Shown piece after piece: positions 1 to 40,181 of a stretch of DNA of 64,000 nucleotides. The translations under genes and the position numbers were made by a program. The notes beneath the pieces were generated by a model. The model had not been told where the DNA came from and ran no database searches. It saw only the letters and a list, made by a program, of their open reading frames with translations. Source of the stretch: Burkholderiales bacterium (lineage in GTDB: Bacteria; Pseudomonadota; Gammaproteobacteria; Burkholderiales; SHXO01); contig DATJZQ010000158.1 in assembly GCA_035499005.1 (NCBI GenBank), positions 3,364 through 67,363 of the forward strand, given 5' to 3'. The stretch's first letter is position 1. The number at the start of each line of letters is the position of its first letter.

Positions 1-3000
1 CAGGGTGAACTCCTGGCGCTCGAGAGCCACGCGCAGCGCTGTTTCCAGAGTGTGCCGCTCGACCGCCCGCACGTTCATCTCGGGCGAGAAGAACTGGTAG
101 TTGTTCCGGCCTTTTTCCTTGGCGTGGTACATCGCCGTGTCGGCGTTTTTCATCAGAGCGCGGTCGTCTTCCGCATCCAGCGGGAAAATGCTGATGCCGA
201 TCGAGCACGAAGTGTTGAGCGTGTGGCCGGCAACCTCGCAAGGCCGCGCCAGCGCCTTGATGATCTTGCCCGCGACCTGCGCGGCATCCTCGGCCTGCTG
301 CAGTCCCTCCAGGGTGACGACAAACTCGTCGCCGCCCAGGCGCGACAGGGTGTCCCCCTTGCGGATGCAGGTCTGCATGCGGCTCGCCACTTCCTTCAGC
401 AGCAGATCTCCCACCTGATGCCCGAGCGAGTCGTTGATGTTCTTGAAGCGGTCCAGGTCGACGAACAGCAGCGCCAGCGATTGCCCCGTGCGCCGCGCCG
501 CGACGATGCCTTGCTCCAGGCGGTCGTTGAACAGCACGCGGTTGGGCAGTTCGGTCAACGGGTCGCGGGTGGCGAGATAGCTGATGCGTGCTTCCGCCGT
601 CTTGCGGTCGGTGATGTCACGCCCGGTGCCACGCTGTCCGATGCGCCGGCCGGCGGCGTCCAGGATGCCGACGGCGTTGACCAGGATCCAGCGCGTCTCG
701 CCCTGCCGGTTGACGATCATGTGATCGAGATCGTTGAACGATCCGTCCGGCCGCATGTTGTGGCGGATCCAGTCACGCACCCGCTCGGCTTCACCGGGCG
801 GCATGAAATCCGTCGGCACGCGTCCGATCAGCTCCTGGTCCGAGTAGCCCCACACGCTCTGCACCCGGCTGGAGACGTACGTCAGGTGGCCTTCCAGGTC
901 GGCCTCCCAGACGTACTCGCCGGCCGCGGCCGCGAAGTCGCGGAAGCGCGTCTCGCTTTCGCGCAGCGCTGCCTCCGCCGCCTGCCGCGCCTGCTCGCGC
1001 TGAAAGTTGTCGAGCGCGAAGGACAGGTTCATCGTCAGCTTGTCGAGCAGCGAGACCAGCTCATCGTCGAAGAACCCGGTCTGATCCGCGTACAGCTCGA
1101 GCGTGCCGACCACTTTGCCCTGGCAGCGCAGCAGACACGTGGCCATGGAGCGGATGTTGAGATCGGCCAGGACGTCGCGCCAGGGGGCCGTGCGCGGCTC
1201 GGCCGACACGTCGTTGCACACCACGTTCACCCCGCTGCGCAGGGCGTGCCCCGAAATCCCTTGCCCTTCCGCCTTGCCCGGATCGGTCGAGGCGATAAAG
1301 CGCTTGGCGTGCCCCTTGTCATCTCCGGCGGAGGCAACTGTTTCCACCAATCCAGTCTTGAAATCGATCAGCGCGATGCTGACGAAGACGAAATGGACGT
1401 ACGCCACCGCGACGCGGCAGATCGCGCCGAACAGCTCTTCGGAGTTGCGGCTGTGCACGATGGCGCCGTTGGCTTCGCTCATCGCCGCATACATGTCTTT
1501 CAGGCGTGCGATGCGTTGGCGCGCCAGCCGGCGGTCGGTGATGTCGGCCGCCGTGCCGCGGTAGCCGCTGAAGCGGCCCTGCGCGTCGAACATCGGTTCC
1601 CCGCGCACCACTGCATAGCGCCCGCTGCGGCGGTCGCGGAACACCAGATCCCTGAATGGCAGGTGCGCGGCCAGCGCGAGGCGATGCTGCTCGCGTGCCT
1701 CCGGCGACTCCCACTCGATATCGAGGTCGAATCGCGTCTTGCCGATCAATTCCTCCGGCGGCGTGATGGTCTTGCCGGACGTGCCAGCGGAAAAGAACCT
1801 GAAGCGCAGCTCCGCGTCCTGCTCCCAGTACCAATCGGCCGACAGCTCGGTCAGGCTGCGGAAGCGTTGCTCGCTCGCGCGCAGCCGTTCCTCCGCGGCG
1901 TGCCGCTCGGTGACGTCGATCAGCACCAGCACCACCACGCGGCTGCCGTCGGGGCGCGTCAGCGCTGACTTGCGCACTAGCATCCAACGAACATCGTCGC
2001 CGATCGTGTAGGGACGCTCGTATTCGACGAGCACGGCACCGGACAGCGCCTGATCGTCGGTCTCCTGGTAGTACGCGGCGTCCTGCTCGGCGAAAAAGTC
2101 GTAGTCGGTTTTACCCAGGATCTGCTCGACCGGGTTGCGGAAGAAGTCGCAGAACGAGGCGTTCGCGGCGATGTAACGGTGGTGCTCGTCCTTCACCAGA
2201 ACCGGGGTCGGGATGGCATCGATCAGCGCATCGAGAAAGCGCTTGGCCTCGGCGATTTCCGCCACCACGCTCACGCGCTCCTGCGCGAGACTGCTCAGCA
2301 GCAGCGTGGCGAGCGATGAGACGATACCGTAGGTCTGCAGCGCAGTCAGGCCGTCCTGCATCGCGGCCGACGCGAACGGCCCTGTACCGAGCAACGTTGC
2401 GCCCGCCGCAACCGCGAAAGTGAGCAGGTTCAGCGCTGTGACCCACGCGAGTGGCAGGTGCATGGCGGTAAGCAACGCCAGGCTGAGGTACACGTAGGCG
2501 CCACCGCTGCCAGAGGGCAGCGCAAATACACTCGCTCCGACCACCAGCTGCGGCAGCACGAGCAGGAGCCGCCTGGGTGCGAAACGCAGCCGGATGCTCC
2601 CGCTTGTCCAGGACAGCAGCACGGGGGTCAGCAGCAGCACACCCAGCGCATCGCCTCCCCACGCGGTGCCCCAGGCTGCGATCCAGCCATGCCAGTATTC
2701 GAGGTGGCCCCAGTGAGCGCCGGTCGCGCTGCAGGTGGCCGCGATGATCGAGCTCAGGAAGGCGCCCACGCAGATGAGCGACAGGACGTGGCGCGGGTGC
2801 TCCAGCGCCCGGGAGAAGCGGAGTTTGTGCTGCAATACCCAGGCGCCAGTCAGCGCCGAGAGCGTGCCGCCGAGGGCGAACAGCAGGCACACCGCTGTGC
2901 TCGCGCCCGCGCCGTACTGAACCGCGAAAGCACCGATTGCAATCGCTGGTGCCAGACGCAAGCCGCCGAGCAGCAGGGCGGCAAGCCCCAGCCCGGCCGG

Positions 3001-3147
3001 GAGCCAGACGAAACTCGTGTGCGCGGCCTGCAGACTGGCCCGCGCGATCAGGAAATAGGCCGCGGCCACAAGCAGCAGCCATCCGGCATCCCTCAGCAGC
3101 GGGCGGTGCGATGCAGGGAGTGCGGTTTCGCCTCGGACAGCGTGCAT
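1..3147 (-). CDS. Membrane-anchored c-di-GMP turnover sensor: MASE1-like polytopic domain + PAS/GAF/PAS modules + GGDEF + start of EAL (C-terminus cut by left window edge)
   Basis: Absent from the ORF track because the frame never closes inside the window. Hand translation of the minus strand from ATG (complement of 3145-3147) reads MHAVRGETALPASHRPLLRDAGWLLLVAAAYFLIARASLQ... with a hydrophobic polytopic N-terminus. It contains ...LSRLGGDEFVV... (complement of ~318-339) and ends ...MYHAKEKGRNNYQFFSPEMNVRAVERHTLETALRVALERQEFTL at position 1 (GGDEF-to-EAL junction). Start, GGDEF motif and end are all in the same frame, and no minus-strand ORF of that frame is listed in 1-3147. The plus-strand 638-aa ORF 52..1968 is its antisense shadow. 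Confidence 0.85.
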   Translation of the reverse strand, partial: MHAVRGETALPASHRPLLRDAGWLLLVAAAYFLIARASLQAAHTSFVWLPAGLGLAALLLGGLRLAPAIAIGAFAVQYGAGASTAVCLLFALGGTLSALTGAWVLQHKLRFSRALEHPRHVLSLICVGAFLSSIIAATCSATGAHWGHLEYWHGWIAAWGTAWGGDALGVLLLTPVLLSWTSGSIRLRFAPRRLLLVLPQLVVGASVFALPSGSGGAYVYLSLALLTAMHLPLAWVTALNLLTFAVAAGATLLGTGPFASAAMQDGLTALQTYGIVSSLATLLLSSLAQERVSVVAEIAEAKRFLDALIDAIPTPVLVKDEHHRYIAANASFCDFFRNPVEQILGKTDYDFFAEQDAAYYQETDDQALSGAVLVEYERPYTIGDDVRWMLVRKSALTRPDGSRVVVLVLIDVTERHAAEERLRASEQRFRSLTELSADWYWEQDAELRFRFFSAGTSGKTITPPEELIGKTRFDLDIEWESPEAREQHRLALAAHLPFRDLVFRDRRSGRYAVVRGEPMFDAQGRFSGYRGTAADITDRRLARQRIARLKDMYAAMSEANGAIVHSRNSEELFGAICRVAVAYVHFVFVSIALIDFKTGLVETVASAGDDKGHAKRFIASTDPGKAEGQGISGHALRSGVNVVCNDVSAEPRTAPWRDVLADLNIRSMATCLLRCQGKVVGTLELYADQTGFFDDELVSLLDKLTMNLSFALDNFQREQARQAAEAALRESETRFRDFAAAAGEYVWEADLEGHLTYVSSRVQSVWGYSDQELIGRVPTDFMPPGEAERVRDWIRHNMRPDGSFNDLDHMIVNRQGETRWILVNAVGILDAAGRRIGQRGTGRDITDRKTAEARISYLATRDPLTELPNRVLFNDRLEQGIVAARRTGQSLALLFVDLDRFKNINDSLGHQVGDLLLKEVASRMQTCIRKGDTLSRLGGDEFVVTLEGLQQAEDAAQVAGKIIKALARPCEVAGHTLNTSCSIGISIFPLDAEDDRALMKNADTAMYHAKEKGRNNYQFFSPEMNVRAVERHTLETALRVALERQEFTL

Positions 3148-3190
3148 CGCGCGGGAAGCGTGGCGGTGCAGGCTAGGCCGATCGGCCCCG

Positions 3191-5005
3191 CTAGACCGCG
3201 CGTCGTTCACCGGAGGCGGGCGGCGCGACCTTCATGACCTCTTCCACCGAGGTCATTCCGGCCACGATCTTCAGTGCACCACTCACGCGCAGCGGCTTCA
3301 TGCCGTCGCGGATCGCCTGGTCGCGCACTTTGTTGAGGTCGGTTTGCGGGCCGATCAAGCCGCGCTGGGAGCGCGTGAGCGTCATCATTTCGTAGATACC
3401 GATGCGTCCCATGTAGCCGGTCATGCGGCACTCCAGGCAGCCCTTGGCCAAGTTCACGCGCCCCGGGAGCGGCACCTGCCACGGATGCGTGAGCGATTTC
3501 CAGCTCTCCTCGTCGACCGTGCCCGGCTCCCTGCAGTGCGGGCACAACGTGCGCACCAGCCGTTGGGCCAGCACGCCGAGCAAAGTCGAGTGCAGCAGGA
3601 ACGGCTCGACGCCGATGTCCAGCAGTCGCGTCACTGCTGAGGGCGCGTCGTTGGTGTGCAGGGTGGACAGCACGAGGTGACCGGTGAGCGCCGCCTGCAC
3701 GGCCATGTCGGCGGTTTCCGTGTCGCGGATCTCGCCCACCATGATGATGTCCGGGTCCTGACGCATCAGCGTACGCACGCCGCTCGCGAAGTCGAGTCCG
3801 ATGCCCGACTGCACCTGCATCTGGTTGAACTGAGGCTCCACCATTTCGATCGGATCCTCGATCGTGCAGACGTTTACGTCGGGGCTGGCGAGCTGCTTGA
3901 GCGTGGAATACAAAGTGGTGGTCTTGCCCGAGCCGGTCGGGCCGGTCACCAGGATCACGCCATGCGGGCGGCCGACGAGCTGGTTCCAGCGCTTCTTGTC
4001 GTCGTCGGAAAAGCCGAGCTCGGTGAAGTCCTTGACCAGGACCTCGGGGTTGAAAATGCGCATCACGAGCTTCTCGCCGAAGGCGGTAGGCATGGTGGAC
4101 AGGCGCAGCTCCACCTCGTCGCCATCTGGGGTGCGCGTCTTGATGCGACCGTCCTGCGGGCGGCGCTTTTCGACCACGTCCATGCGCCCCAGGATTTTGA
4201 TGCGGCTGGTCATCGCACCCAGCACCGGCGTGGGAATCTGGTAGACCTGATGCAGCACGCCGTCGATGCGGAAGCGCACATTGCCCGCTTCGCGCCGCGG
4301 CTCCAGGTGGATGTCGCTCGCGCGCTGGTCGAATGCGTACTGCAGCAGCCAATCCACGATGCTGACGACGTGACGGTCGTTGGCATCCAGCTTGCCGCTC
4401 TGGCCGAGCTGCACCAGCTGCTCGAAATTGGCGATGTCGCTGATGACGCCCTGGCTCTGCTGCGAGGCGCCGTGCACCGAGCGCGCCAGGTTGTAGAACT
4501 CGATCTGGTAGTTGGCGATGTCCTGGGGATTGGCCAGCACGCGCTTGATCGCGAGGCGCAGGATCTGCGCGAGCTCCGTCTCCCATTCGCGCACATAGGG
4601 CTCGGACGTCGCGATCACGACTTCCTTGGCGGTGACCTGCACGGGCAGAATGCGGAAGCGCGCCGCGTAAGCATTGGACATCACCTTGGTCACGGCCGCG
4701 AAGTCGATCTTGAACGGGTCGATGTGCATGTAAGGAAGATCGACCTTGGCGGCGAGCCACTCGCTCAGCGCATCGAGGCTCAGCAGGTGCTTGGGCTTGC
4801 GCGGGTCTTTCCATTTCTGCTCGGCAATGACGATCAGGGGATGAGCATCCCCCTTGCGCAGCGCTTTCGTGGCGAGCAGGGCGTCCGCGGCCTCGCGGGT
4901 GGCGAGCTGATCGGCGACCAGGTCGCGCAGGATCTCATCGAGCGTCAGCCTGCGATCAGGTTGCCGTTGCGGGGCGGCGGCGCGGGCTGTTGTTGGGGCG
5001 GCCAT
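3191..5005 (-). CDS. GspE/PilB-family secretion/pilus ATPase (type II/IV secretion NTPase), orphan
   Basis: ORF 3191..5230. Walker A GPTGSGKTTT, Asp box IIMVGEIRD, His box LSTLHTND, C-terminal CPHC...CLEC tetracysteine, T2SSE_N-like N-domain (DLPYMHIDPFKIDF...FRILPV). Start moved to Met76 (complement of 5003-5005, MAAPTTARAAAPQRQ...) because the upstream 75 codons are Arg/Ser/Pro-rich and unlike the family. Confidence 0.9.
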   Translation of the reverse strand: MAAPTTARAAAPQRQPDRRLTLDEILRDLVADQLATREAADALLATKALRKGDAHPLIVIAEQKWKDPRKPKHLLSLDALSEWLAAKVDLPYMHIDPFKIDFAAVTKVMSNAYAARFRILPVQVTAKEVVIATSEPYVREWETELAQILRLAIKRVLANPQDIANYQIEFYNLARSVHGASQQSQGVISDIANFEQLVQLGQSGKLDANDRHVVSIVDWLLQYAFDQRASDIHLEPRREAGNVRFRIDGVLHQVYQIPTPVLGAMTSRIKILGRMDVVEKRRPQDGRIKTRTPDGDEVELRLSTMPTAFGEKLVMRIFNPEVLVKDFTELGFSDDDKKRWNQLVGRPHGVILVTGPTGSGKTTTLYSTLKQLASPDVNVCTIEDPIEMVEPQFNQMQVQSGIGLDFASGVRTLMRQDPDIIMVGEIRDTETADMAVQAALTGHLVLSTLHTNDAPSAVTRLLDIGVEPFLLHSTLLGVLAQRLVRTLCPHCREPGTVDEESWKSLTHPWQVPLPGRVNLAKGCLECRMTGYMGRIGIYEMMTLTRSQRGLIGPQTDLNKVRDQAIRDGMKPLRVSGALKIVAGMTSVEEVMKVAPPASGERRAV

Positions 5006-5281
5006 CTGGCGGGTCGCGGTTCGGGTTGGGGCTCCGAGCGTCGGACGAAGCGAATTCCATTCCAACGGCAGGGCAGGGCACTGCGTCCGATGGTGTGCGC
5101 CGCTCCTCATGAGCGACGGGCGCCATTTCGACGAGGTTCTCGCACTGCGGCAGGCTCGCTCGGGATCGCGCGCGAACCGCGGGAGCGCGCTCAACACCTT
5201 GTGCTGCAACACAAAAGATGGCGCGCCCAAGCCGTGTAACGCGTGCGGTGCTGGGGAGCGGCCTGCGCAGAACCGCCCGGA

Positions 5282-5848
5282 TCAGGGGCGAGTCGGCGCC
5301 TGATGCCGCGGCCGACCTGACGCTTCGATCGTCCCGATGTGGAAGCCGAACTTCCCGGTTGCGCGGTCGCTGAGGTAGTGGTTGAGGGTGTTGCGCACGG
5401 TCGCAAAGGCCAGCTGCTCCCAGGGGATGTCGGCCTCTTCGAACAGGCGTGCCTCGAGCGTCTCGGCACCGGCGCCGATCTGGGCGTCGAGCAGCCGCCC
5501 GCGGAACAGCAGATACACCTGATCGATGTGGGGCAGGTTGTAGAGCGAGAACAGCGCGGCGATCTCGACGCGCGCGTTGGCTTCCTCCAAAGTCTCGCGT
5601 TGCGCCCCCTCGGCCGTGGTTTCGCCCTTCTCCAGAAAGCCGGCCGGGACCGTCCACAGGCCGTGGCGCGGCTCAATCGCGCGCCGGCACAGCAAGATGC
5701 GGCCCTCCCACTCTGCCACACAGCCCACGATCATCCGCGGGTTCTCGTAGTGGATCGCGTGGCAGCTGTCGCACACCCAGCGCGGCAAGGTGTCGCCGTC
5801 CGGTACGCGCCGGGCGACGGGTGCTGCGCAGTTGCTGCAGAAGTTCAA
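5282..5848 (-). CDS. NUDIX hydrolase with N-terminal C4 zinc ribbon
   Basis: ORF 188 aa. CSNC...CDSC zinc ribbon, then Nudix box GFLEKGETTAEGAQRETLEEANA (GX5EX7REUXEEXGU pattern). Confidence 0.85.
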   Translation of the reverse strand: MNFCSNCAAPVARRVPDGDTLPRWVCDSCHAIHYENPRMIVGCVAEWEGRILLCRRAIEPRHGLWTVPAGFLEKGETTAEGAQRETLEEANARVEIAALFSLYNLPHIDQVYLLFRGRLLDAQIGAGAETLEARLFEEADIPWEQLAFATVRNTLNHYLSDRATGKFGFHIGTIEASGRPRHQAPTRP

Positions 5849-5879
5849 AACGAGAACTATCGCGTTGAGGCAGGTTCTG

Positions 5880-6314
5880 TCAGCGCGGCTTGAGATTGCG
5901 GATGTAGACGACGATCTGCTTGATCTGGTCGTCGGTGAACACTCCGCCGAAAGCCGCCATGCGTCCGGGCTTGCCGAACTTGATGCGCTCGAAGATCTGC
6001 TCGTCGGTCTTCTCGGTGCCCATCAGCTGAGGCCCTTTGCCTGCCCTGCGCCCGCCGTCCTCGTGACAGAAGCCGCAGATGTTGCTGAACGCACCGTGAG
6101 CGCTGAACTCCGGCGCCTTCGCCGGCTCAGACTGGTCCGCGGTCTTGGTCTGCGCTGGCTGGCCAGCGTCTTTGGGTGTCTCGTAGCGCGTCATCGGTGT
6201 CGCGGGCTTGGTGTCGTCGGCCGCGGCGCTACAAGCCGCGAGAGCGAGGCACACTGCCGTCGCGGACACGGCGTGGTGGACCGCACTACGCGCTGCCGCC
6301 TGCAGACTCGTCAT
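5880..6314 (-). CDS. Class I c-type cytochrome, probable lipoprotein; likely electron acceptor of the adjacent PQQ dehydrogenase
   Basis: ORF 144 aa. Lipobox-like LALAAC after a signal sequence, single heme motif CGFCH, distal Met in GKPGRMAAF. Lies 93 nt downstream of the PQQ dehydrogenase on the same strand. Confidence 0.8.
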   Translation of the reverse strand: MTSLQAAARSAVHHAVSATAVCLALAACSAAADDTKPATPMTRYETPKDAGQPAQTKTADQSEPAKAPEFSAHGAFSNICGFCHEDGGRRAGKGPQLMGTEKTDEQIFERIKFGKPGRMAAFGGVFTDDQIKQIVVYIRNLKPR

Positions 6315-6407
6315 CTCGAATCTCCTCTGAAGCGATATTTTATCCCACCATAAAAAAGAGGCGGGGAAGATTCCCCGCCTCCGATGTGCAGCGCGTTTGC
6401 GGCGAAA

Positions 6408-8147
6408 TTACGGCAGCGCAAACACTTTGAGGACGCCGGCGTCCTTCGGATAGCTCGCGTACGGTTCGCCGAACCATTCGCCGTAGCCATCGCCGACCAG
6501 GCTGCCCCACCCGGTTACCACCGCAATGTACTGCTTGCCCTTCGCGGTGTACGTGATGATGCCGCCGTTGTGGCCCATGCCGTTCTGGTGACCCCACAGC
6601 AGCTTACCGTTGCTCGCGTCGTAGGCGCGCAGTACTCCATCCGCGCCCGGCACGAACAGCAGGTTGCCGCCGGTGGTGAGCAGGCTGGCGTGCGGCGGTA
6701 CGTCATAGTGGATGCTGAACGCGACCTTGCCGGTGATCGGATCGCGCCCATCGACGTGGCCGTACATGCGCTCTTCGCCCTTGGCCGGCACGAACTTGAA
6801 GTCCGCGCCGATGTTGAGTTGCGCCATCGGCTCCAGCACCGGGGTGGTCTTCACCACCTCGAGGTCGATACACCACTCGTAGCCGACGCGGTAGAACAGC
6901 TTGGTCTTCGGATTGTAGGAACCCGAGTTCCAGCTCAAACCGCCGGCGATGGCCGGGCACAGGTTCTCGTGCTTGCCCTCGCGCAGGTCGCGGCGTCCCA
7001 CCAGCGTGCCGTCGTCCTTGATGGTCTGAACGAAGTTGATGTTCTTGACGAACGGCCAGACCTTCTGCGGGTTGGCGTTGCGGTCGTACACGAACACGAA
7101 GCCGCCCTTGTTCGGGTGGACCACGTACTTCTTGCCGCCCTGGTCGATGAACATGAACTCGCCCATCGCGCTGTCGAAGTCCCACGCGTCATGCGGCAGC
7201 TCCTGCCAATAGCCCTTGAGCTTGCCGGTGTCGGGATCGAGCAGCACGACCGAGGTGGTGTACAGGTTCACGCCGGGCCGCGGGCCGTTGTTCTGCCAGT
7301 CGGGACCGGCCCAGTCGTACAGAGGTGCCGGGTTGCCGGTTCCCCACCACACGGAGTTGGTCTCTGGATCGTACGAGCCCGCCATCCAGCCGCCCCCGCC
7401 GCCCGTCTTCCACGAGTCGCCGCCCCAGGTGTTGCGCGAATCCCCGTTGTCCTCATTGCCACCCACCGTGAAGAACTGCCACACCTGCTGGCCGCTCTTG
7501 GCGTCGACGCCGAAGATGGGACCGCGATAGGGCCACTCGCCGCCCTGGGCGCCGATGATCACCTTGTCCTTGACCACCAGCGGAGCGCCGGTGAAGCCCA
7601 CAGTCAGCTTCTCGGAGTTGATCAGCTTCGTTTCCCAGTTGAGCTTGCCGGTCTTCGCGTCGACCGCGACCAGCTTGCCGTCCAGGGTGCCCATGTAGAT
7701 GTTGCCGTAACCCGCTGCGATGCCGCGGTTATAGGGCGAGTGGGTCTGCTTGGCGACCAGATCTTCGTTGAGCTTCTGCTTGTAGGTCCACAGCATCTGC
7801 CCGGTCGCCCCGTCCAGCGCGTAGAGCTGGTTGTACGAGCTCGTGTAGTAGACCACGCCGTCGATGGCCAGGGGGAAGCTCTGCAGCCCACGATAGGCGC
7901 GCGAGGCGACGTGCGACCAGGCCTCCTGCAGCCGTCCCACGTTCGCGGTGTTGATCTGATCGAGCGCGCTGTAATGCCACGACTTGTAGGTGCCGTGATA
8001 CATCATCCAGTTGCCCGGCTCGCCCGCCGCATTCAACAGACGATCGTAAGTCACGTCGGCGGCACCGGCCTGCGCTGCGACGCAGGCGAACGCCGCTGCC
8101 GCAACGGCCTTGACGCCGCCGGCAACCTGGTTCTTCCATCGTTTCAT
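6408..8147 (-). CDS. PQQ-dependent dehydrogenase, methanol/ethanol family (8-bladed propeller quinoprotein)
   Basis: ORF 579 aa with signal peptide. Family blocks GAQGGEWPYRGP, TWGGDSWKTGGGGGWMAGSYDPETNSVWWGTGNPAP, LPHDAWDFDS, TTGGNLLFVPGADGVLRAYDASNGKLLW. See findings for DxD and missing Cys-Cys. Confidence 0.92.
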   Translation of the reverse strand: MKRWKNQVAGGVKAVAAAAFACVAAQAGAADVTYDRLLNAAGEPGNWMMYHGTYKSWHYSALDQINTANVGRLQEAWSHVASRAYRGLQSFPLAIDGVVYYTSSYNQLYALDGATGQMLWTYKQKLNEDLVAKQTHSPYNRGIAAGYGNIYMGTLDGKLVAVDAKTGKLNWETKLINSEKLTVGFTGAPLVVKDKVIIGAQGGEWPYRGPIFGVDAKSGQQVWQFFTVGGNEDNGDSRNTWGGDSWKTGGGGGWMAGSYDPETNSVWWGTGNPAPLYDWAGPDWQNNGPRPGVNLYTTSVVLLDPDTGKLKGYWQELPHDAWDFDSAMGEFMFIDQGGKKYVVHPNKGGFVFVYDRNANPQKVWPFVKNINFVQTIKDDGTLVGRRDLREGKHENLCPAIAGGLSWNSGSYNPKTKLFYRVGYEWCIDLEVVKTTPVLEPMAQLNIGADFKFVPAKGEERMYGHVDGRDPITGKVAFSIHYDVPPHASLLTTGGNLLFVPGADGVLRAYDASNGKLLWGHQNGMGHNGGIITYTAKGKQYIAVVTGWGSLVGDGYGEWFGEPYASYPKDAGVLKVFALP

Positions 8148-8376
8148 AAGTCTCTCCCGATATTGAGTCTTCGCACGACAACTGAAATCACTTTTTGTTC
8201 AACTCGGGACTTGCCGTCGGCGCCTTCGGTTTTATGGTTTTGTGCTGCAGGAAAGTGCGCTGCGGAAAATCCGGACGAGACTCTAGTCCCAGTCGCACTC
8301 CTTTGCAAGCGAAGTCGTCGAAGCGGGAGAACCACGCTGTTCTTGGGTCGTCGCACGCCGGCGTTTTCATAGGACA

Positions 8377-8850
8377 ATGAGCGCCTTGACCGTCAGTTTT
8401 CAAGCAAGGCTAAGCGCGTTGGCAACCATCCGAGTCACCCCGGTGCTCGCTCTGGACGAGCGCGATCTGCAGGAGACCTTCGTGCGTTCGCCCGGACCGG
8501 GTGGACAGAACGTCAATAAGGTTTCCACCGCGGTGCAGCTGCGCTTCGCGCTGGAACAGAGCGCGGACCTGACGGCGGAGGTTCGGCGCAGGCTCCGCGC
8601 GTTGGCAGGCCGGCGCGTCACGGCGGACGGATGGCTCGTCATCGAGGCTAACCGCTTCCGCAGCCAGGCGCGCAACCGGGAAGACGCGCGCGCCAGGCTG
8701 GTCGAGCTCGTACGCAAGGCTGCGCACCCGCCCAAGCCGCGTCGCCCCACCCGGCCCAGCGTGGCATCCAAGGAGCGCCGGCTGCGGGACAAGCGCGCCC
8801 GCGCTCGCACCAAGTTGGCGCGCGGACGGAGTGCTCTGGATCAGGGCTAG
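8377..8850 (+). CDS. arfB: Alternative ribosome-rescue factor ArfB (peptidyl-tRNA hydrolase, GGQ family)
   Basis: ORF 157 aa. GPGGQNVNKVSTAVQLRF GGQ motif plus basic C-terminal tail RRPTRPSVASKERRLRDKRARARTK. True start may be the in-frame TTG at 8419 (MATIRVTPV...). Confidence 0.85.
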   Translation: MSALTVSFQARLSALATIRVTPVLALDERDLQETFVRSPGPGGQNVNKVSTAVQLRFALEQSADLTAEVRRRLRALAGRRVTADGWLVIEANRFRSQARNREDARARLVELVRKAAHPPKPRRPTRPSVASKERRLRDKRARARTKLARGRSALDQG

Positions 8851-8884
8851 AACCCGCGTTGCAGCAGCTGTGCTACGCACCGCT

Positions 8885-9370
8885 TCATCGGTGCTCGGGG
8901 AGAATGCGCTGAAGCAAGGCGACCAGCGTCTCGCGCTCCGCGGCAGTCAGATTGCTGACCAGGCGCTTCTCATGGCGCGCGACCCGCTGTTTCAGCCTCT
9001 TCAAAAGTGCCGTGCCGGCGGCCGTCAGCGAAATACCGTTCACACGGCGATCCTCGACTGAGGCGCGGCGCGCCACCAGCCCGCGCGCCTCGAGCTTGTC
9101 CAGCGCCGGCACCAGGCTGGAGCGGTCGAGGCGGGCCGCGTTTGCCAGCTCGGTCTGCTTCAGGCCCGGATTGGCTTCGATGATGACCAGCATGCCGAAC
9201 AGGCCCGGGCTCATATCGAGCTCACCCATCGCCGCGGCGAAATCGTCGAAGATGGCGCGCTGCGCCAGGCGCAGATGGTAGCCGAGCAAACCCGGCAGCA
9301 GGCCGAGCTTGGCGCCCCCGGCGGCAGAGGCCGCGAGCGGACGAGCTTTGCGCCTAGGCGTTTCCGACAT
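8885..9370 (-). CDS. MarR-family transcriptional regulator
   Basis: ORF 161 aa. Winged-helix pattern typical of MarR (LKQTELANAARLDRSSLVPALDKLEARGLVARRASVEDRRVNGISLTAAG). Divergent from the catabolic operon starting at 9477. Confidence 0.85.
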   Translation of the reverse strand: MSETPRRKARPLAASAAGGAKLGLLPGLLGYHLRLAQRAIFDDFAAAMGELDMSPGLFGMLVIIEANPGLKQTELANAARLDRSSLVPALDKLEARGLVARRASVEDRRVNGISLTAAGTALLKRLKQRVARHEKRLVSNLTAAERETLVALLQRILPEHR

Positions 9371-9382
9371 CCGGTGTTTTGT

Positions 9383-9412
9383 TTGACATCCAACAATTGG
9401 AGGTGTTACTTT
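9383..9412 (+). promoter_or_regulatory. Candidate sigma-70 promoter (TTGACA-N18-TACTTT) with embedded palindrome TCCAA-N3-TTGGA (9389-9401), possible MarR operator
   Basis: Read directly in the 106-bp marR/reductase divergent spacer. Perfect -35 hexamer at 9383-9388, weak -10 at 9407-9412, 13-bp inverted repeat between them. Confidence 0.35.
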
Positions 9413-9476
9413 GTTTCATCCTAGCGGAAATCGCCGCCGCTGACTATCGTGTCTTCCTGATCACCCTCGCAGCGCC

Positions 9477-10535
9477 ATGACTTGGACCATCACCCTGGCC
9501 GGCGATCCGCAGAGCGCACCAGCGGAGGATGGCGAAACCGTGCTGGACGCGCTGCTGCGCCACGGCGTAGGGTTCGCTTACAGCTGCCAGTCGGGCAACT
9601 GCGGCACCTGCAAGTGCGAATACGTCGCGGGCGACATCCTGGAGCTCGAGTACTCGGAGCATGCGCTGTCAGCGGCCGAGCGCAGCCGCGGTGTGATCCT
9701 CGCCTGCCGGACGCAGGTGTGGGGCGACGTCGAGATCCGCCGCCTCACGGCCGAGGACTTCGTGATGCATCCCTCGCGAGTGATGCAATGCAGGGTGGCG
9801 GAGATGAGCTTCGCAACGCACGATGTGCTGCGGCTGCGGCTCGCGATCGAGTCGGGCGGTCCTTACACGTTTTCCGCCGGACAGTTCGCCAAGCTCGAGT
9901 TCGGCTTCGCCCCGAATGTCCCGCGCGACTATTCAATGGCCAATCGGCCGGACGATGCGATGCTGGAGTTTCACATCCGCTGCATGGCCGGCGGGGTGAG
10001 CAGCCATCTTCCGGCGCAGCTCAGGGTGGGCGATCCGGTGCGCGTCTCAGGTCCGTTCGGCACGTCGTATCTGCGCGAACAGCACCCCGGACCGCTGATC
10101 GCCGTCGCGGGCGGCACCGGCCTCGCCCCGATCCGCTCCATCATCGCCGCCGCGCTCGCCAAGGGTATGGTGCAGCCGCTTCACCTCTACTTCGGCGTGC
10201 GCGCAGAGCGCGACGTGTATGGCGAGGCGGAATTGCGCGCATGGCAGGCCCAGCATCCGCAGCTGAAAGCGCACGTGGTGCTGTCCGATCAGCCGCAGCC
10301 CGGTGACGTGCACGAGACCGCCGCCACTCCGGCGCGGCGCTACGGCCTGGTGACGGACGCTGTGCGCGGTGATTTCGCCAGCTTTGCCGGGTTTCAGGCC
10401 TATCTCGCCGGGCCGCCGGCGATGGTGGACGCCGCCACGGAGCTGCTGCGCGCGGGCGGGATTGCGGCGCGCGACATCCACGCGGACGCCTTCTACAGAG
10501 CCATCGACCAGACAGCGTCGGGGGCGGTGGCATGA
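9477..10535 (+). CDS. Ferredoxin-NAD(P)H oxidoreductase: N-terminal plant-type [2Fe-2S] + FNR-like FAD/NAD domains (oxygenase reductase component)
   Basis: ORF 352 aa. CQSGNCGTCKC...ILACR cluster motif, RDYSMAN flavin motif, AVAGGTGLAPIRS NAD(P)-binding motif. Domain order as in NagAa/phenol-hydroxylase-type reductases, opposite to PaaE. Confidence 0.88.
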   Translation: MTWTITLAGDPQSAPAEDGETVLDALLRHGVGFAYSCQSGNCGTCKCEYVAGDILELEYSEHALSAAERSRGVILACRTQVWGDVEIRRLTAEDFVMHPSRVMQCRVAEMSFATHDVLRLRLAIESGGPYTFSAGQFAKLEFGFAPNVPRDYSMANRPDDAMLEFHIRCMAGGVSSHLPAQLRVGDPVRVSGPFGTSYLREQHPGPLIAVAGGTGLAPIRSIIAAALAKGMVQPLHLYFGVRAERDVYGEAELRAWQAQHPQLKAHVVLSDQPQPGDVHETAATPARRYGLVTDAVRGDFASFAGFQAYLAGPPAMVDAATELLRAGGIAARDIHADAFYRAIDQTASGAVA

Positions 10536-11464
10536 GCCGTCCGTTCAGCCTCGAAGGGCAAGTCGCTATCGTGAGCGGGGGCGCGCGCGGCATCGGCTAC
10601 GCCGTCGCGCAAGAGCTGCTCCGGCTCGGCGCGCGCGTGACACTCGTCGATCCGGGCGTCTCGATAGCAGGCGAGGAGGCCGATGCCGACAGCGTGCAAA
10701 CTGCCGCTGCCGCCCTGGGGGCCAACGCGTTGGCTGTGCCTGAAGACATCGCCGCGCCGGGAGCGGCGCAGACGGCGGTGCAGCTGACGCTCGAGCGCTT
10801 CGGCGCGCTGGACATCGTGATCAACAATGCGGCCATTCTGCGCGACGGCTTCATCTTCAAGTCGCAGCGCAGCGATTGGGAGCGCGTCATCCAGACCAAC
10901 CTCACCGGCGCGTGGGCCTTGCTCGCCGCAGCGACGCCGGTCCTGCGCGATGCAGTGAAGAGCGGCCGCGCGCCAGGGCGGATCGTCAACATGACTTCGA
11001 CCGCTGGACTGTACGGCAACTACGCTCAGTCAGCTTATGCGGCGGCAAAGGCGGGTCTGGTCGGGCTCACACGCGCTGTAGCGCTGGACATGGCGCGCTC
11101 CAAGGTGAACTGCAACGCCGTTGCGCCGTTTGCCGCCACGCGCGTGACCGAGTCCATCGCGCCGGCCAACCCGGCGCAACAGGCATACAAGGAGCGCGCG
11201 CTGAAAATCCCGGCCGGCCATGCCGCGCGCCTGGTCGGGTGGCTCTGCTCGCCGGGCTGCGATGTCACCGGCCAGATCTTCGGAGTGCGCGGGCGCGAGG
11301 TGTTTCTGTTTTCCCAGCCGCGGCCCGCAGTACGCGTGCTGACCGCGCCATTGGCGGACCTGACGCCGGAGTCACTTGACGCCGCCATCAGCATCGCGGT
11401 GCAGGATCAGCTGGTCGAGCTCACCTCCGACCTCGAAGCATTCGACAGCGAACCCATCCTCTAG
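10532..11464 (+). CDS. SDR-family oxidoreductase (hydroxyacyl-CoA-dehydrogenase-like, with C-terminal extension)
   Basis: ORF 310 aa. VSGGARGIG cofactor motif, NNAAI, catalytic S...YAAAK. ATGA start/stop overlap with the reductase gene. Confidence 0.85.
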   Translation: MSRPFSLEGQVAIVSGGARGIGYAVAQELLRLGARVTLVDPGVSIAGEEADADSVQTAAAALGANALAVPEDIAAPGAAQTAVQLTLERFGALDIVINNAAILRDGFIFKSQRSDWERVIQTNLTGAWALLAAATPVLRDAVKSGRAPGRIVNMTSTAGLYGNYAQSAYAAAKAGLVGLTRAVALDMARSKVNCNAVAPFAATRVTESIAPANPAQQAYKERALKIPAGHAARLVGWLCSPGCDVTGQIFGVRGREVFLFSQPRPAVRVLTAPLADLTPESLDAAISIAVQDQLVELTSDLEAFDSEPIL

Positions 11465-11466
11465 CT

Positions 11467-12195
11467 ATGGAGCGCAAGATGTCCACCACGGAAGCCACGC
11501 AAATCCAGATCCCCGAGGTGAAGACGGCGGCCGAGCTGGCCCAGCAGCCGGAGGAGTATCGCACCGCCGTGCAGAAGATCGTCATCAGCCACGCGGTCAA
11601 CGAGCTGTACGGCGCGCAGGTGTTCGACGAGCCGGCCATCAAGCTCGCACCGACTCCCTACGCCAAGTGGCTGACCTGCCGGGTGGCGATGGAGGAGTAT
11701 CATCATCACGTCCGCTTCAAGGCCTTGGCGGACGAGATCGGCGTCGAGCCGGAGCGCATGGATCCGCAGCACAAGCGCCCGCTGTCGATTTTCAGCTTCG
11801 CGCTCAGGACCTGGCCGGAATTCTGCGTGATCAAAGCCATCGCGGACTATGCCGAGATCCTGCAGGTGGAGGATCTGCTCCACTGCAGCTTCCATCCGCT
11901 GCGCAATCTGGCACGCATTACCATGCCGGAGGAGAAGTTCCACGCCAAGTTCGGCAAGGACTTCTGCCTGGACTTGATCCAGCGCGGCAGCGCCGCCGAG
12001 GTCCAGGACGCCATCGACCGCTACTTCCCGATCACGCCCGGTTTTTTCGGAGGCAGCCAGTCCAAGAACAACGAGATCTACCGCAAGTGGAAACTGAAGC
12101 AGCGCAGCAACGAGGAAATGCGGCAGGATTTCCTGACCCGCGTTACCGAGCTGGTTGAACGCGACTTCGGCTTGAAGCTCCCCGCGGTGAACTGA
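11467..12195 (+). CDS. Ferritin-like di-iron oxygenase subunit, PaaA-like (phenylacetyl-CoA epoxidase catalytic-subunit family), minimal 242-aa form
   Basis: ORF 242 aa. E...ExxH...D/E...ExxH ligand pattern visible (NELYG, MEEYHHH, ADYAE, PEEKFH). Block-wise resemblance to E. coli PaaA as I recall it (YRKTLIRQIGQHAHSEIVG / QDEAGH / KEESFHQRQG / DAINRFWWP). Start 2 nt after the SDR stop. Confidence 0.7.
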
Positions 12196-12227
12196 GCTGG
12201 AGCCGATTTGAACGACAGGAGGAGAAC

Positions 12228-13268
12228 ATGACACGAGCGGCCACGGACATCCGCGTGGAGCGCGACGCCTACTATCAGCGCATCGCGCAGGCTAATCTGA
12301 CGCCGCTGTGGGAGGTGATGTCCGCGCTGGTGCCTGAGCAGCCGCGCTCCCCGTGTGTGCCGGCCATCTGGCGCTATCAACAGGTGCGCCCCTGGCTGAT
12401 GGAATCGGGCCGGCTGATCTCGGCCAAGGAAGCCGTTCGGCGCGTGCTGATCCTGAAGAATCCCGGCCTGTCAGGCGCCTCGGCGATCACTCAGTCGCTC
12501 TTTGCCGGACTGCAGCTGATCTTGCCGGGCGAAGTTGCTCCCAGCCACCGCCACACGCAGTCGGCGCTGCGCTTGATCGTCGAAGGCAGTGGCGCGTTCA
12601 CCGCGGTCGAAGGCGAGCGCATCACGATGCACCCGGGCGATTTCATCATCACACCGGCATGGACCTGGCACGACCACGGCAATCCCGGCAGCGAGCCCGT
12701 GGTCTGGCTGGACGGCCTGGACATTCCGCTCGTGCGCTTTCTGGAGGCGGGTTTCCAGGAAAACTATCCGCAGGACTCGCAGCCGGTGGCGCGCCCTGAG
12801 GGCGATGCGCTGGCACGCTACGGCGCCAATCTGCTGCCGGTCGACTACCGGCCGCGCGGTCTTGCATCGCCCGTCTTCGCCTACCCCTATGGGCGGACGC
12901 GCGAGACGCTGGAGCAGCTGCGCTGCAACGGGAAGCCGCATGCGGTGCACGGCTACAAGATGCAGTTCATCAACCCGGCGAGCGGTAGTTACCCGATGCC
13001 CAGCATCGGCGCGTTCGTGCAGCTTCTGCCGGCAGGTTTTCGCGGCGGCGCCTGCCGCTGCACGGACGGGACCGTGTTCCACTGCATCGAGGGTGGGGGC
13101 AGCGTGAGCGTCGGCAGCGAGCGCCTCACGTTCTCTGCACGCGATACGTTCGTGGTTCCCGCGTGGTGTACCCATCGACTCGACGCCGACGGCGAGACGG
13201 TGCTGTTCAGCTTCTCAGATCGCCCGGTGCAGCAGGCGCTCGGACTGTGGCGCGAGGAGCTGAGCTGA
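12228..13268 (+). CDS. Gentisate 1,2-dioxygenase (bicupin)
   Basis: ORF 346 aa. Hallmark block [69 protein letters not shown] upstream. Confidence 0.92.
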
Positions 13269-13319
13269 AGAATTCGCGCCGTTGCAGTTTCCCAACCTTT
13301 TTCCTGGAACCCAGCACCG

Positions 13320-14012
13320 ATGACAAACGCCTTCGTCGTTGACGCGCACCAAACGCCGTCGGTTCCCGTTGCCGGCCAAAAAGGCCGCTTCCCGGTGCAT
13401 CGCATCTACTGCGTCGGGCGCAACTACGCCGCGCACGCGCGCGAGATGGGGAAGGACCCCGAGCGTGAGCCGCCGTTCTTTTTCCTGAAGCCCGCCGACG
13501 CAGTGGTCCCCGAAGGCGGCGAGGTCCACTACCCGCCGGGCACTTCCAACCTGCATCACGAGATCGAACTGGTGGTTGCGCTGCACCGCGGCGGGTTCCA
13601 GATTCCCGCGGCGCGGGCGCTGGACCACGTCTACGGCTACGCGGTCGGCTTGGACATGACGCGCCGGGACCTGCAGTTCCAGGCGCGCGACATGGGACGT
13701 CCATGGGATTTCGGCAAGGCCTTCGACGAGTCGGCGCCGATCACCACCATCTACCCCGTTGCCAGCCACGGGCATCATTTGGCGGGCGCCATTACGCTCT
13801 CGGTCAACGGCGAGCTGCGTCAGCAGGGCGACTTGAAGGACATGATCTGGAACGTTCCGGACACGCTGGCGTTTCTGTCCAATTACTACCGCCTCCAGGC
13901 TGGTGACTTGATCTTCACCGGAACGCCTGCGGGGGTGGGTGCTGTGGTGCGCGGGGACAAGCTGGTGGGCAAGGTCGAGGGTCTCGCCGAGCTCCACGTC
14001 ACCATCATCTGA
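13320..14012 (+). CDS. FAH-family hydrolase, probable fumarylpyruvate hydrolase
   Basis: ORF 230 aa. FAH C-terminal fold motifs (CVGRNYAAHAREMG, HHEIELVVAL, DLIFTGTPAGVG). Sits downstream of gentisate dioxygenase. Confidence 0.85.
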   Translation: MTNAFVVDAHQTPSVPVAGQKGRFPVHRIYCVGRNYAAHAREMGKDPEREPPFFFLKPADAVVPEGGEVHYPPGTSNLHHEIELVVALHRGGFQIPAARALDHVYGYAVGLDMTRRDLQFQARDMGRPWDFGKAFDESAPITTIYPVASHGHHLAGAITLSVNGELRQQGDLKDMIWNVPDTLAFLSNYYRLQAGDLIFTGTPAGVGAVVRGDKLVGKVEGLAELHVTII

Positions 14013-14021
14013 ATCGGCGTC

Positions 14022-14924
14022 GTGGACGCGCGCAAGACCTGGCTCGAAGTCGCGCTCAACGGTCCGTGGGGCCGCGCACGCCAGCCAGGGATCCCGGTGA
14101 GCGTGCGGGACATCGTGGACCAGGCCGCAGCGTGCGTGCGTGCCGGGGCGGCGATCGTGCACGTGCACGCCTACGACGAGTCGAGCGGCGCACCGCGGGA
14201 AAGCGCGGCCGCCTACGCCGCCATCATCGAGGGCATCCGGCGACATGTGGACGCGATCGTCTATCCGACCGTGTCAATTCCCGGCATGGCACACTCGCCC
14301 GTGGACGAAACGCCGCCGCAGCGCTTCGCGGTGCACGAGGAGCTCGCGCAACGCGGCCTGCTGGAGTGGGCGGCGGTCGACCCTGGTTCGCTCAACATCG
14401 CCTCGTACGATGATCTGCGCCAGGACCGCGATGGATTCGTGTACCGCAATCCCGAGCAACATCTGCGCTACGCGCTCGGCCTTGCGGCTCGTTATCGTTT
14501 TCATCCAAGCTACGCGATCTACGAGCCGGGCTTTCTGCGGCTGGGGGCGTCGTTGCACTGGCGCTGCGCCTGTCCGGCTCCCATCTACCGCTTCATGTTT
14601 TCCACGGACTACACCTTTGGGTTCCCCGCCGATGACTACGGTCTCACGGCCTATCTCAAGCTCATGGACCAGGTGGCGCCGGGCGCCAGGTGGATGGTGG
14701 CCGGTCTGGGCGTCGACATCCGGCAACTCGTGCCGCGCGCGGTAGCGGAGGGCGGACACGTCCGCGTGGGTCTGGAGGACGCGTCGCTCGGTTGCGCCCA
14801 GACGAACGTCGAACTGGTGGAGGCGGCCGCTCGCATGATCAATGCCTGTGGCGGCGAGCTGGCGACTGCGGTCGAGGTGCGCGCCGAGCTGCGCGCGGCG
14901 GAGAGGGGCGAGGCGCAGCTATAA
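14022..14924 (+). CDS. Beta-keto acid cleavage enzyme (BKACE / 3-keto-5-aminohexanoate cleavage enzyme family, DUF849)
   Basis: ORF 300 aa, GTG start. Family-like N-terminus WLEVALNG and HVHAYD, VRVGLED blocks as I recall for Kce-type TIM barrels. Confidence 0.75.
   Translation: MDARKTWLEVALNGPWGRARQPGIPVSVRDIVDQAAACVRAGAAIVHVHAYDESSGAPRESAAAYAAIIEGIRRHVDAIVYPTVSIPGMAHSPVDETPPQRFAVHEELAQRGLLEWAAVDPGSLNIASYDDLRQDRDGFVYRNPEQHLRYALGLAARYRFHPSYAIYEPGFLRLGASLHWRCACPAPIYRFMFSTDYTFGFPADDYGLTAYLKLMDQVAPGARWMVAGLGVDIRQLVPRAVAEGGHVRVGLEDASLGCAQTNVELVEAAARMINACGGELATAVEVRAELRAAERGEAQL
14919..14924 (+). promoter_or_regulatory. Perfect TATAAT hexamer 29 nt upstream of the pdxA-family start (candidate -10 box; overlaps BKACE stop codon)
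   Basis: Exact hexamer read in sequence. No convincing -35. Confidence 0.25.
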
Positions 14925-14952
14925 TCGCAGCGATCAGCGATCGGCAAACTTC

Positions 14953-15954: not shown

Positions 15955-15972
15955 CGGCTGTCGGCCGGCGCG

Positions 15973-34396: not shown

Positions 34397-34402
34397 TATA
34401 AT
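34397..34402 (+). promoter_or_regulatory. Perfect TATAAT hexamer 22 nt upstream of ccmA (candidate -10 box of the ccm operon)
   Basis: Exact hexamer in the 43-nt tal/ccmA spacer. Poor -35. Confidence 0.3.
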
Positions 34403-34424
34403 TTGCCACTTTTTGCGGGGCGTG

Positions 34425-35045
34425 ATGCTCGACGCGGCGTCTCTGGAATGCGTGCGAGGCCAACGCCGCCTGTTTCATCGCCTGTCGTTCAATCTTCCTT
34501 CCGGCCACGTGCTGTGGGTGCTGGGGCCTAACGGAAGCGGCAAGACCAGCCTCATCCGGATGTTGTGCGGATTGCTGCGGCCGGATGCGGGTGAGGTGCG
34601 CTGGAGGGGCGAGGAGGTACGGGCCTCGGGCGACAGCTTCCATGCGGACCTGCTCTATCTGGGTCACGCGCCGGCGGTGAAGGGCGATCTCACCAGCCTC
34701 GAGAACGTGCGTTTCGGGCTGGCGCAAACCGGGCTTGGCGCCGATGCGCACGAAGCCGAGGCGGCGCTGAACGAGTTCGGTCTGGCGGGACGCGAACGGC
34801 TGCTCGCCCGCTTCCTGTCGGCCGGGCAGCAGCGGCGCGTCGGCCTGAGCCGCTTAGCGCTCGGGAGGTCAAAGCCGTTGTGGATCCTGGACGAGCCGTT
34901 CACGGCGCTCGACTCCCAGGCCGTGGAGCTGGTTCAGTCCCATCTGACGCGGCACGTGATGGGCGGCGGGACTGTCGTGCTGGCGAGCCATCACGACATC
35001 GGTTTTGCAGGAACCCCGGTGCAGCGGCTGCAGCTCGGCGCATGA
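34425..35045 (+). CDS. ccmA: Heme exporter ATP-binding protein CcmA
   Basis: ORF 34413..35045. Walker A GPNGSGKTS, signature LSAGQQRR, Walker B LWILDEP. ATG 34425 preferred over TTG 34413. Confidence 0.92.
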   Translation: MLDAASLECVRGQRRLFHRLSFNLPSGHVLWVLGPNGSGKTSLIRMLCGLLRPDAGEVRWRGEEVRASGDSFHADLLYLGHAPAVKGDLTSLENVRFGLAQTGLGADAHEAEAALNEFGLAGRERLLARFLSAGQQRRVGLSRLALGRSKPLWILDEPFTALDSQAVELVQSHLTRHVMGGGTVVLASHHDIGFAGTPVQRLQLGA

Positions 35046-35725: not shown

Positions 35726-35732
35726 GCCCGAC

Positions 35733-37116: not shown

Positions 37117-37141
37117 ACACGCACATAGAGATGAAACACCC

Positions 37142-40142: not shown

Positions 40143-40181
40143 GGCGTGGTGCCGCGAGCCGGGGCGCCAGCCGCGCTGCGC

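Follow-up and report, generated by a model that had tools for sequence, protein, structure and literature searches.

The stretch of DNA analysed here, referred to as the window, covers 64,000 nucleotides of contig DATJZQ010000158.1 (positions 3,364 to 67,363, forward strand) in the Burkholderiales bacterium assembly GCA_035499005.1. Within it, positions 5880-8147 hold two genes on the minus strand, which encode a dehydrogenase dependent on pyrroloquinoline quinone (PQQ) and a small c-type cytochrome and are separated by a hairpin. The pair is examined here as a candidate periplasmic redox system, in which the dehydrogenase would be of the lanthanide type and devoid of the vicinal cysteine ring common among its better known relatives. 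The features of the two genes, in the direction of transcription, are as follows:

6408-8147, minus strand: open reading frame (ORF) of the PQQ-dependent dehydrogenase, 579 amino acids (aa), an eight-bladed beta-propeller of the methanol/ethanol superfamily
8061-8147, minus strand: N-terminal signal peptide of the dehydrogenase, about aa 1-27/29, with a cleavage site predicted from the sequence between VAAQAGA and AD
7722-7745, minus strand: THSPYNRG loop, aa 135-142, in which T135-H136 replace Cys-Cys and R141 is the conserved arginine of NRG
7536-7538, minus strand: Glu204, metal ligand equivalent to PedH Glu199 in the HMMER alignment, preceded by Gly203 and invariant in the clade
7332-7334, minus strand: Asn272, metal ligand equivalent to PedH Asn281 in the HMMER alignment, invariant in the clade
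7173-7184, minus strand: W322-D323-F324-D325, with D323 as catalytic base and metal ligand and D325 as the extra 'lanthanide-type' Asp
6870-6959, minus strand: Cys397 (6957-6959) and Cys426 (6870-6872), the sole cysteines of the mature protein, invariant in the clade
6351-6382, minus strand: intrinsic-terminator-like hairpin found by a terminator scan, between the dehydrogenase stop and the cytochrome start
5880-6314, minus strand: small class I c-type cytochrome, 144 aa, with signal peptide, linker and a haem domain at about aa 70-144
6231-6242, minus strand: lipobox-like LAAC of the cytochrome, aa 25-28, in the signal peptide, followed by SAAA and then DD
6063-6077, minus strand: haem motif CGFCH of the cytochrome, aa 80-84, its sole CxxCH motif
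5958-5960, minus strand: Met119 of the cytochrome in GKPGRM, probable sixth ligand by analogy with c6/c551-type cytochromes

The dehydrogenase matched Pfam PF01011 with 214 bits. When compared with solved structures by HMMER, it scored highest against PedH (6zcv, 272 bits) and the Comamonas quinohaemoprotein alcohol dehydrogenase (ADH; 1kb0, 271 bits), followed by ExaA (245 bits), XoxF of strain SolV (242 bits) and MxaF (about 205 bits), and it is about equally far from all solved PQQ dehydrogenases, at 28-33% identity. An AlphaFold2 model made from 54 clade sequences (mean predicted local distance difference test, pLDDT, of 81; predicted template modelling score, pTM, of 0.86) had PedH as its top Foldseek match (E 1.7e-47, template modelling score, TM, of 0.83, 33% identity) and XoxF as the next one, with TM values of 0.81-0.83 to PedH, XoxF, MxaF and ExaA and 32-33% identity for the top matches. 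These comparisons support the assignment to the PQQ dehydrogenases of the methanol/ethanol superfamily, in which the cofactor site would be occupied by PQQ. The signal peptide implies that the protein is exported to the periplasm; its segment has a pLDDT below 50 in the model, and the alignments to PedH and other homologues start downstream of it. Shine-Dalgarno-like sequences lie 5' of both genes, and the GC content at third codon positions is high, at 0.89 for the dehydrogenase and 0.83 for the cytochrome.

The metal site carries most of the argument for a lanthanide enzyme. A sequence-only reading of this region had placed W-D-F-D at residues 322-325 (codons 7173-7184), exactly where it is read, and had taken the second Asp for the signature ligand of lanthanide-dependent enzymes. 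HMMER alignment with PedH (6zcv) sets W322-D323-F324-D325 opposite the identically numbered W322-D323-F324-D325, E204 opposite E199 and N272 opposite N281, and MAFFT, run against a XoxF5 annotated on a Phyllobacterium plasmid, agrees in register, with D325 opposite the Asp of the XoxF5 WDYD motif; the second Asp is therefore in register with the ligand position in both comparisons, and the interpretation withstood this check. In an alignment of 54 clade members, with a mean column identity of 75%, the residues Q134, T135, H136, P138, R141, G142, T154, E204, W254, N272, D323, D325, K347, C397, W406, C426 and W518 are invariant, so that the site can be considered under purifying selection and the Thr-His replacement fixed. 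WD[FY]D also recurs in all of the 22 genome loci.

The association of the extra Asp with other site residues was followed in an alignment of the window protein, the full-length members of the 150 best cluster representatives at 50% identity and reference proteins, in which 116 representatives retained the catalytic Asp and the acidic metal ligand; the counts derived from it are not phylogenetically independent. Where Gly precedes the metal Glu, position 325 is Asp in 70 of 72 representatives; with any other residue before Glu, it is Asp in 29 and non-Asp in 15. PedH, the M. extorquens ExaF-like protein, XoxF5 and the window protein alike combine G-E with D-x-D, and the quinohaemoprotein ADH of S. 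stutzeri combines A-E with D-x-T, reading WDFT. That Gly before Glu goes with the extra Asp supports a metal site of the PedH/XoxF type. Since the ligand set is the same in kind as that of PedH, ExaF and XoxF, a light lanthanide is the most likely metal, and the dehydrogenase is probably of the lanthanide type.

The second distinctive trait is the loop next to the cofactor. The segment that takes the place of CCDxxNRG reads THSPYNRG (residues 135-142, codons 7722-7745), and the alignment by eye on which this had been proposed proved right: HMMER sets T135-H136 opposite Cys131-Cys132 of PedH, and MAFFT against XoxF5 agrees. It is equally correct that the dehydrogenase contains no Cys-Cys pair, its cysteines being solely at positions 22 (within the signal peptide), 397 and 426. 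The CC motif was found in none of the 22 genome loci and in none of the 54 aligned clade members, and QTHSPYNRG recurs by exact match in 21 of these 22 loci, L017 being the one outside this count. H136, at the position of the second ring cysteine, may pack on PQQ. E. coli Gcd likewise has no Cys-Cys and bears His262 in the equivalent loop, which can be set to within about one position of H136, although its register is ambiguous by 1-4 positions depending on gap placement. This His262 has reportedly been proposed to pack against PQQ in modelled E. coli glucose dehydrogenase; a literature search on it as a stand-in for the ring found nothing.

A shifted or alternative vicinal disulfide was also considered and rejected. 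None was revealed in the mature protein, where C397 and C426 do not form a vicinal pair because they are 29 residues apart; in the MAFFT alignment they match the distal Cys pair of XoxF5, located in ICPAALG and HVCMDYE, and PedH is without both. They presumably correspond to the distal structural disulfide Cys386-Cys415 of MxaF.

Homologues of the dehydrogenase are numerous. At least 4466 reached E <= 1e-20 among the 8000 candidates scored, the best 120 being 69-98% identical, and the representative library comprised 1237 clusters at E <= 1e-30. The genome matches belong nearly all to uncultured Burkholderiales/Betaproteobacteria metagenome-assembled genomes (MAGs) from soil and freshwater, and an identical dehydrogenase in the same gene surroundings was found on at least 10 metagenome contigs. 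The sole isolate records found are two 288-kb plasmids of 'Rhodococcus qingshengii' (NZ_CP054209.1 and NZ_CP096568.1, 69% identity). In both (166492-186135 of NZ_CP054209.1, locus L040), the dehydrogenase is accompanied by the cytochrome c, a solute-binding protein (SBP) of the SBP_bac_3 family, a Bug/TctC-type binding protein and, matching NF041535 with 307 bits, the N-terminal half of a TonB-dependent PQQ importer of the PqqU type. The presence of proteobacterial-looking genes in an actinobacterial record may reflect horizontal transfer or a misassigned replicon.

In a neighbour-joining (NJ) tree computed without bootstrap from the nearest clusters and references only, the QTHSPYNRG clade lies inside a wider Cys-Cys-less lineage, which includes P0121 (53% identity, TFYNPYNRG), P0123, P0126 with Skermanella, and P0128. 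This lineage is apart from XoxF5 (MCCDTVNRG), from PedH/ExaF (PCCDV[IV]NRG) and from the quinohaemoprotein group, and the dehydrogenase did not fall inside the XoxF1-5 or ExaF/PedH clades; Cys-Cys was lost in several other branches of the tree too. In a published tree (ISME 2025) the labels of the PQQ-ADH types go by accession, Type 9 for example comprising Bradyrhizobium-type accessions, and no clade member bears an accession from a cultured reference. The enzyme had been predicted to belong to a poorly studied PQQ-ADH clade, in keeping with which neither a solved structure nor a specific name was found for the clade.

The combination of D-x-D with a missing Cys-Cys turned out to be common: Cys-Cys is missing from the loop in 47 of the 116 nearest cluster representatives, and all but four of these (43 of 47) carry the extra Asp. 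PQQ dehydrogenases with both traits have already been noted, for instance among thaumarchaeal quinoproteins (in a passage of PMC7300363) and among putative lanthanide glucose and sorbose dehydrogenases (in passages of PMC11996626 and of bioRxiv 10.64898/2026.07.10.737718), and the latter two sources also predict many further lanthanide-type clades. These environmental enzymes have the same motifs and a lanthanide dependence predicted from sequence, yet they belong to different clades; within the passages searched of the three sources, the present Burkholderiales clade and its cassette with cytochrome and SBP are undescribed. The clade is large and uncharacterised. Its distinguishing features (Thr-His for Cys-Cys, the lanthanide-type site, a dedicated small cytochrome, usually an SBP, and the hairpin conserved between the genes) are individually unsurprising, and as a set they offer a clean experimental system for the old question of what the disulfide ring does.

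Gene linkage connects the dehydrogenase with the cytochrome. In 24 of 25 Burkholderiales loci the gene next in line after the dehydrogenase encodes a homologue of the cytochrome (the remaining locus sits on a contig that ends too early), and the same order is kept in a 40%-identical Skermanella locus and in the 69%-identical plasmid record. The order dehydrogenase, cytochrome c, SBP_bac_3 was seen in 24 retrieved loci, corresponding to 21 distinct ones of the clade when the plasmid record is counted in, and the Skermanella locus is annotated with the same three genes in this order. An annotated locus with xoxF5, a methanol-related cytochrome c and a quinoprotein-associated XoxJ-type SBP has a matching layout, and a pedF/SBP/ExaF-like locus contains the same components. 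The sub-clade of the window (the window, L001-L004 and L025) is without SBP_bac_3 at the 3' side of the cytochrome, where the window has a NUDIX hydrolase gene (5282-5848) instead, and has lost the third gene of the cassette. Among the ORFs scanned in the 64-kb window, neither an SBP gene nor a second PQQ dehydrogenase was found. The genes flanking the cassette vary across the clade and are mostly housekeeping ones (fpg, coaD, rsmD, M16 peptidases, ftsY), and in the window they are arfB, marR, the NUDIX gene and a type II secretion ATPase. The cassette is a self-contained module, and its context yields no substrate.

Since the order of genes in most clade members mirrors xoxF, xoxG and xoxJ and the site is lanthanide-type, the dehydrogenase might be a divergent XoxF-type methanol dehydrogenase and the cassette the genuine counterpart of xoxFGJ, used for methylotrophy or to scavenge methanol; the distal Cys pair is a further likeness to XoxF5. 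We nonetheless consider this decidedly unlikely. The clade groups in the NJ tree with Cys-Cys-less clusters and away from XoxF5, PedH/ExaF and quinohaemoprotein ADHs, its identity to XoxF proteins (about 30-33%) lies within the 28-33% that separates it from solved methanol and ethanol dehydrogenases alike, and the vicinal Cys-Cys of XoxF5 is missing. The window cytochrome is not cL-like, with 16.2 bits on TIGR03872 (cytochrome cL) vs a cut-off of 147.8. The SBP of the relatives reaches 72 bits on TIGR03871 (cut-off 212), and a generic amino-acid SBP model does equally well; by these scores the SBP seems only distantly MoxJ/XoxJ-like, and the window is without it altogether. The neighbours, moreover, are housekeeping genes and not genes of C1 assimilation.

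One locus with additional content, L039 (ERZ25039527 contig_10397, 3.39 Mb; positions 1297-12169), bears two tandem pairs of PQQ dehydrogenase and cytochrome c, with a gene for an FMO-like (Baeyer-Villiger-type) monooxygenase between the two pairs, a sigma-54 activator with a MimR_N domain upstream, and a gene of the Zn-ADH family downstream of the SBP of the clade member. Being a single locus, it provides an anecdotal hint at secondary-alcohol/ketone metabolism.

The cytochrome matched Pfam PF13442 (E 2.4e-11); among PDB entries it weakly resembled cytochrome c6, CcoP and c-552, the first two most closely, whereas TIGR04494 (PedF-like) gave no match to the window protein. CxxCH and G.PG.M are kept in nearly all orthologues. 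The linker is about 45 aa long and rich in Pro, Ala, Lys, Glu, Thr and Gln in the window sub-clade, vs about 18 aa in the others. A ccm System I cluster is present in the window at about 34400-42500, including a CcmC-like Cytochrom_C_asm gene (35733-36473) and CcmF (37142-39142), and the host should therefore be able to mature the 5880-6314 cytochrome.

The description of the downstream gene as a single-haem cytochrome c with a lipobox-like LAAC agrees with its sequence; its further portrayal as a membrane-tethered lipoprotein found no backing among the orthologues. If a canonical lipobox is taken as [LVI][ASTVI][GAS]C closing the signal peptide, it is present in 1 of 26 orthologues, namely that of the window. 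The 98%-identical cytochrome of L001 reads LAVC, and those of L002-L004 have no suitably placed Cys. Most orthologues display an Ala-rich or small-residue site of the signal peptidase I type before D/E/Q, and in the window protein such a site, between SAAA and DD, comes directly after the Cys. A lipoprotein nature was thus rejected as a conserved trait of this cytochrome, the lipobox being absent in 25 of the 26. Tethering to the membrane is possible for the window cytochrome alone, and a soluble periplasmic cytochrome appears more likely than a tethered one.

The hairpin between the two genes consists of an 11-bp stem (8 G-C pairs) and a 4-nt loop, followed by TTTTTT. It lies 20-50 nt past the dehydrogenase stop in all 23 clade loci L001-L023, with an unchanging GGCGGG...CCCGCC core flanked by co-varying outer pairs (GAG/CTC, CAG/CTG, ACG/CGT, AAG/CTT). 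A role as a general feature of PQQ-ADH operons was rejected, as the sequences downstream of xoxF5 (L042) and of the Skermanella gene (L046) yielded no such hairpin. Hairpins within operons are a common means to set the ratio of two products, and this one probably acts through partial termination or 3'-end stabilisation, giving more dehydrogenase than cytochrome.

Taken with moderate confidence, the two genes would thus encode a periplasmic redox pair, made up of a lanthanide-type, ring-free PQQ dehydrogenase and its cytochrome c acceptor, in a ratio set by the hairpin. The observed basis of this reading consists of the fold family, the site residues with their conservation, and the linkage of the genes; from it we infer the occupancy by PQQ and lanthanide, the transfer of electrons to this particular cytochrome, and the roles of His136 and of the hairpin. 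The dehydrogenase would be exported by its signal peptide and would bind PQQ in the eight-bladed beta-propeller, with a metal, most likely a light lanthanide, held by Glu204, Asn272, Asp323 and Asp325. Asp323 would be the base in the oxidation of an alcohol, aldehyde or sugar-like substrate. The co-encoded class I cytochrome c, with one haem ligated by His84 and Met119, would re-oxidise PQQH2 and pass the electrons to the aerobic respiratory chain. No vicinal disulfide ring would be used, Thr135-His136 standing in its place with the His packed on PQQ, and the intergenic hairpin would set a high ratio of dehydrogenase to cytochrome expression.

Several observations weigh against this reading, and they concern the family assignment, the metal and the acceptor in turn. 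On NCBIfam TIGR03075 (PQQ methanol/ethanol family), the dehydrogenase scores 447.4 bits, under the cut-off of 480.05, which is the reason why its relatives are publicly named only 'PQQ-binding-like beta-propeller repeat protein'. The model has a pLDDT below 50 at residues 320-324 and is therefore uninformative on active-site geometry. The ORFs scanned in the window include no pqq biosynthesis genes, no PqqU, and no TonB-dependent receptor or lanthanide-uptake genes. Together with the missing pqq genes, the second-best NCBIfam match, TIGR04528 ('acido-empty-quinoprotein group A', 278 bits), could suggest a cofactor-less, non-catalytic 'empty' quinoprotein-like propeller. This is barely credible, given that the TIGR04528 score is far under its cut-off of 650, that the metal ligands, the NRG arginine, W254, W406 and W518 are all invariant, and that a dedicated cytochrome gene is kept alongside; in addition, the related plasmid record has the N-terminal half of PqqU beside the cassette, which makes an import of PQQ possible.

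As regards the metal, D-x-D is needed for lanthanide binding in XoxF and ExaF (bioRxiv 10.1101/2020.02.25.964783), though not proven to suffice. The alignment shows W-D466-M-D468 at the homologous place of E. coli K-12 gcd (L041), with the same spacing as in the 'lanthanide motif', so that D-x-D alone is not diagnostic outside the methanol/ethanol clades. E. coli Gcd, which shares the lack of Cys-Cys, is a Ca2+/Mg2+ enzyme. Most of the nearest environmental clusters (99 of 116 representatives), besides, carry the extra Asp, which may therefore be present by default rather than as a specific adaptation. Along with the absence of lanthanide-handling genes among the ORFs scanned, these points could be accommodated by an enzyme of the same fold and with the same partner that uses Ca2+ (or Mg2+), the extra Asp being ancestral or structural. 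We deem this alternative unlikely, though deserving serious consideration, since the four ligand positions and the Gly before Glu fit PedH and XoxF5 and not Gcd, the Ca-type quinohaemoprotein reference has Thr at the 325 position, and the Asp accompanies lanthanide use in every biochemically tested enzyme of the methanol/ethanol family cited (in a passage of PMC11996626; 10.1101/2020.02.25.964783). The Glu/Asn ligand positions of Gcd are out of line with the E/N set, and Gcd is therefore better viewed as a caution against D-x-D as proof than as a close counter-example.

The acceptor is the third point. In ExaA, the ring was reported to be essential for efficient transfer to cytochrome c550 (Mennenga 2009, as cited in a passage of PMC12997753), and its absence here casts doubt on the cytochrome as acceptor. 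The strong hairpin conserved between the genes could likewise mean that they are transcribed separately. The dehydrogenase transcript might then end at a terminator and the electrons take another route, for instance to a quinone as in glucose dehydrogenase, where the disulfide-less Gcd uses ubiquinone. Such a scheme seems highly improbable to us: the two genes stay side by side in 24 of 25 loci, and even at 40% identity, amid varying surroundings, the hairpin may well be of the ratio-setting kind common within operons, and the dehydrogenase, unlike Gcd, has no N-terminal membrane domain on alignment with the E. coli protein, scoring 147 bits on TIGR03074 (membrane glucose/quinate/shikimate family) vs a cut-off of 833. 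The redox pair with the cytochrome as acceptor is therefore retained as the preferred reading; the more specific proposal, that in this clade electrons pass to a dedicated soluble cytochrome c with no ring involved and that His136 packs on PQQ and tunes or relays the electrons, is advanced tentatively.

Judging from these alignments, the dehydrogenase would work most like PedH/ExaF and XoxF, yet belong to neither clade. The closest known system in sequence and structure is PedH/ExaF ('PQQ-ADH type 2b'; 6zcv, 6zcw), which shares the ligands E, N and D-x-D with Gly before Glu and the periplasmic location, and whose genes likewise have those of a small cytochrome c and an SBP_bac_3 protein in their vicinity. 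It differs in having only 32-33% identity, in bearing Cys-Cys where the clade has T135-H136, in its separate branch of the tree, and in the partner, as the cytochrome of the window is not PedF-like. The Ca2+ enzymes ExaA, PedE, MxaF and the quinohaemoprotein ADHs have in common with the clade the fold, the catalytic Asp, the Glu/Asn ligands and a cytochrome c or haem c acceptor, but carry the Cys-Cys ring and Ser, Ala or Thr at the place of D325. E. coli Gcd resembles the dehydrogenase in the missing Cys-Cys, the His of the equivalent loop and the D-x-D of its W-D-M-D, and is set apart by its membrane domain, its ubiquinone acceptor and the lack of the conserved Glu/Asn ligand positions.

Two further groups of genes were noted on the plus strand of the window. 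Beyond the divergent arfB/marR, positions 9477-17169 hold a catabolic-looking cluster, whose link to the dehydrogenase is not established, with a Fer2/FAD/NAD reductase, an SDR, a PaaA/PaaC-like oxygenase subunit, a cupin, an FAA hydrolase, a BKACE enzyme, a PdxA-like dehydrogenase and a four-carbon-acid-sugar-kinase-like protein. At 49268-53024, a histidine kinase with a DAHL domain precedes a Ser/Thr kinase fused to response-regulator receiver domains, an unusual signalling pair unrelated to the dehydrogenase.

The Cys-Cys ring is treated as a hallmark of the cytochrome-linked quinoprotein alcohol dehydrogenases. A large natural clade that has a dedicated cytochrome c and usually an XoxJ-like SBP, but Thr-His in place of the ring, offers a ready-made test of what the ring does. 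As the motif combination is common in metagenomes and has been noted before, the value of the system is to be sought in biochemical work on it, not in the sequence observation as such. If ring-free transfer to cytochrome c were confirmed, the ring would be dispensable for the passage of electrons from PQQ to haem c; if the lanthanide site were confirmed, a widespread lanthanide enzyme, possibly with a new substrate range, would be added to the repertoire of uncultured soil and freshwater Burkholderiales.

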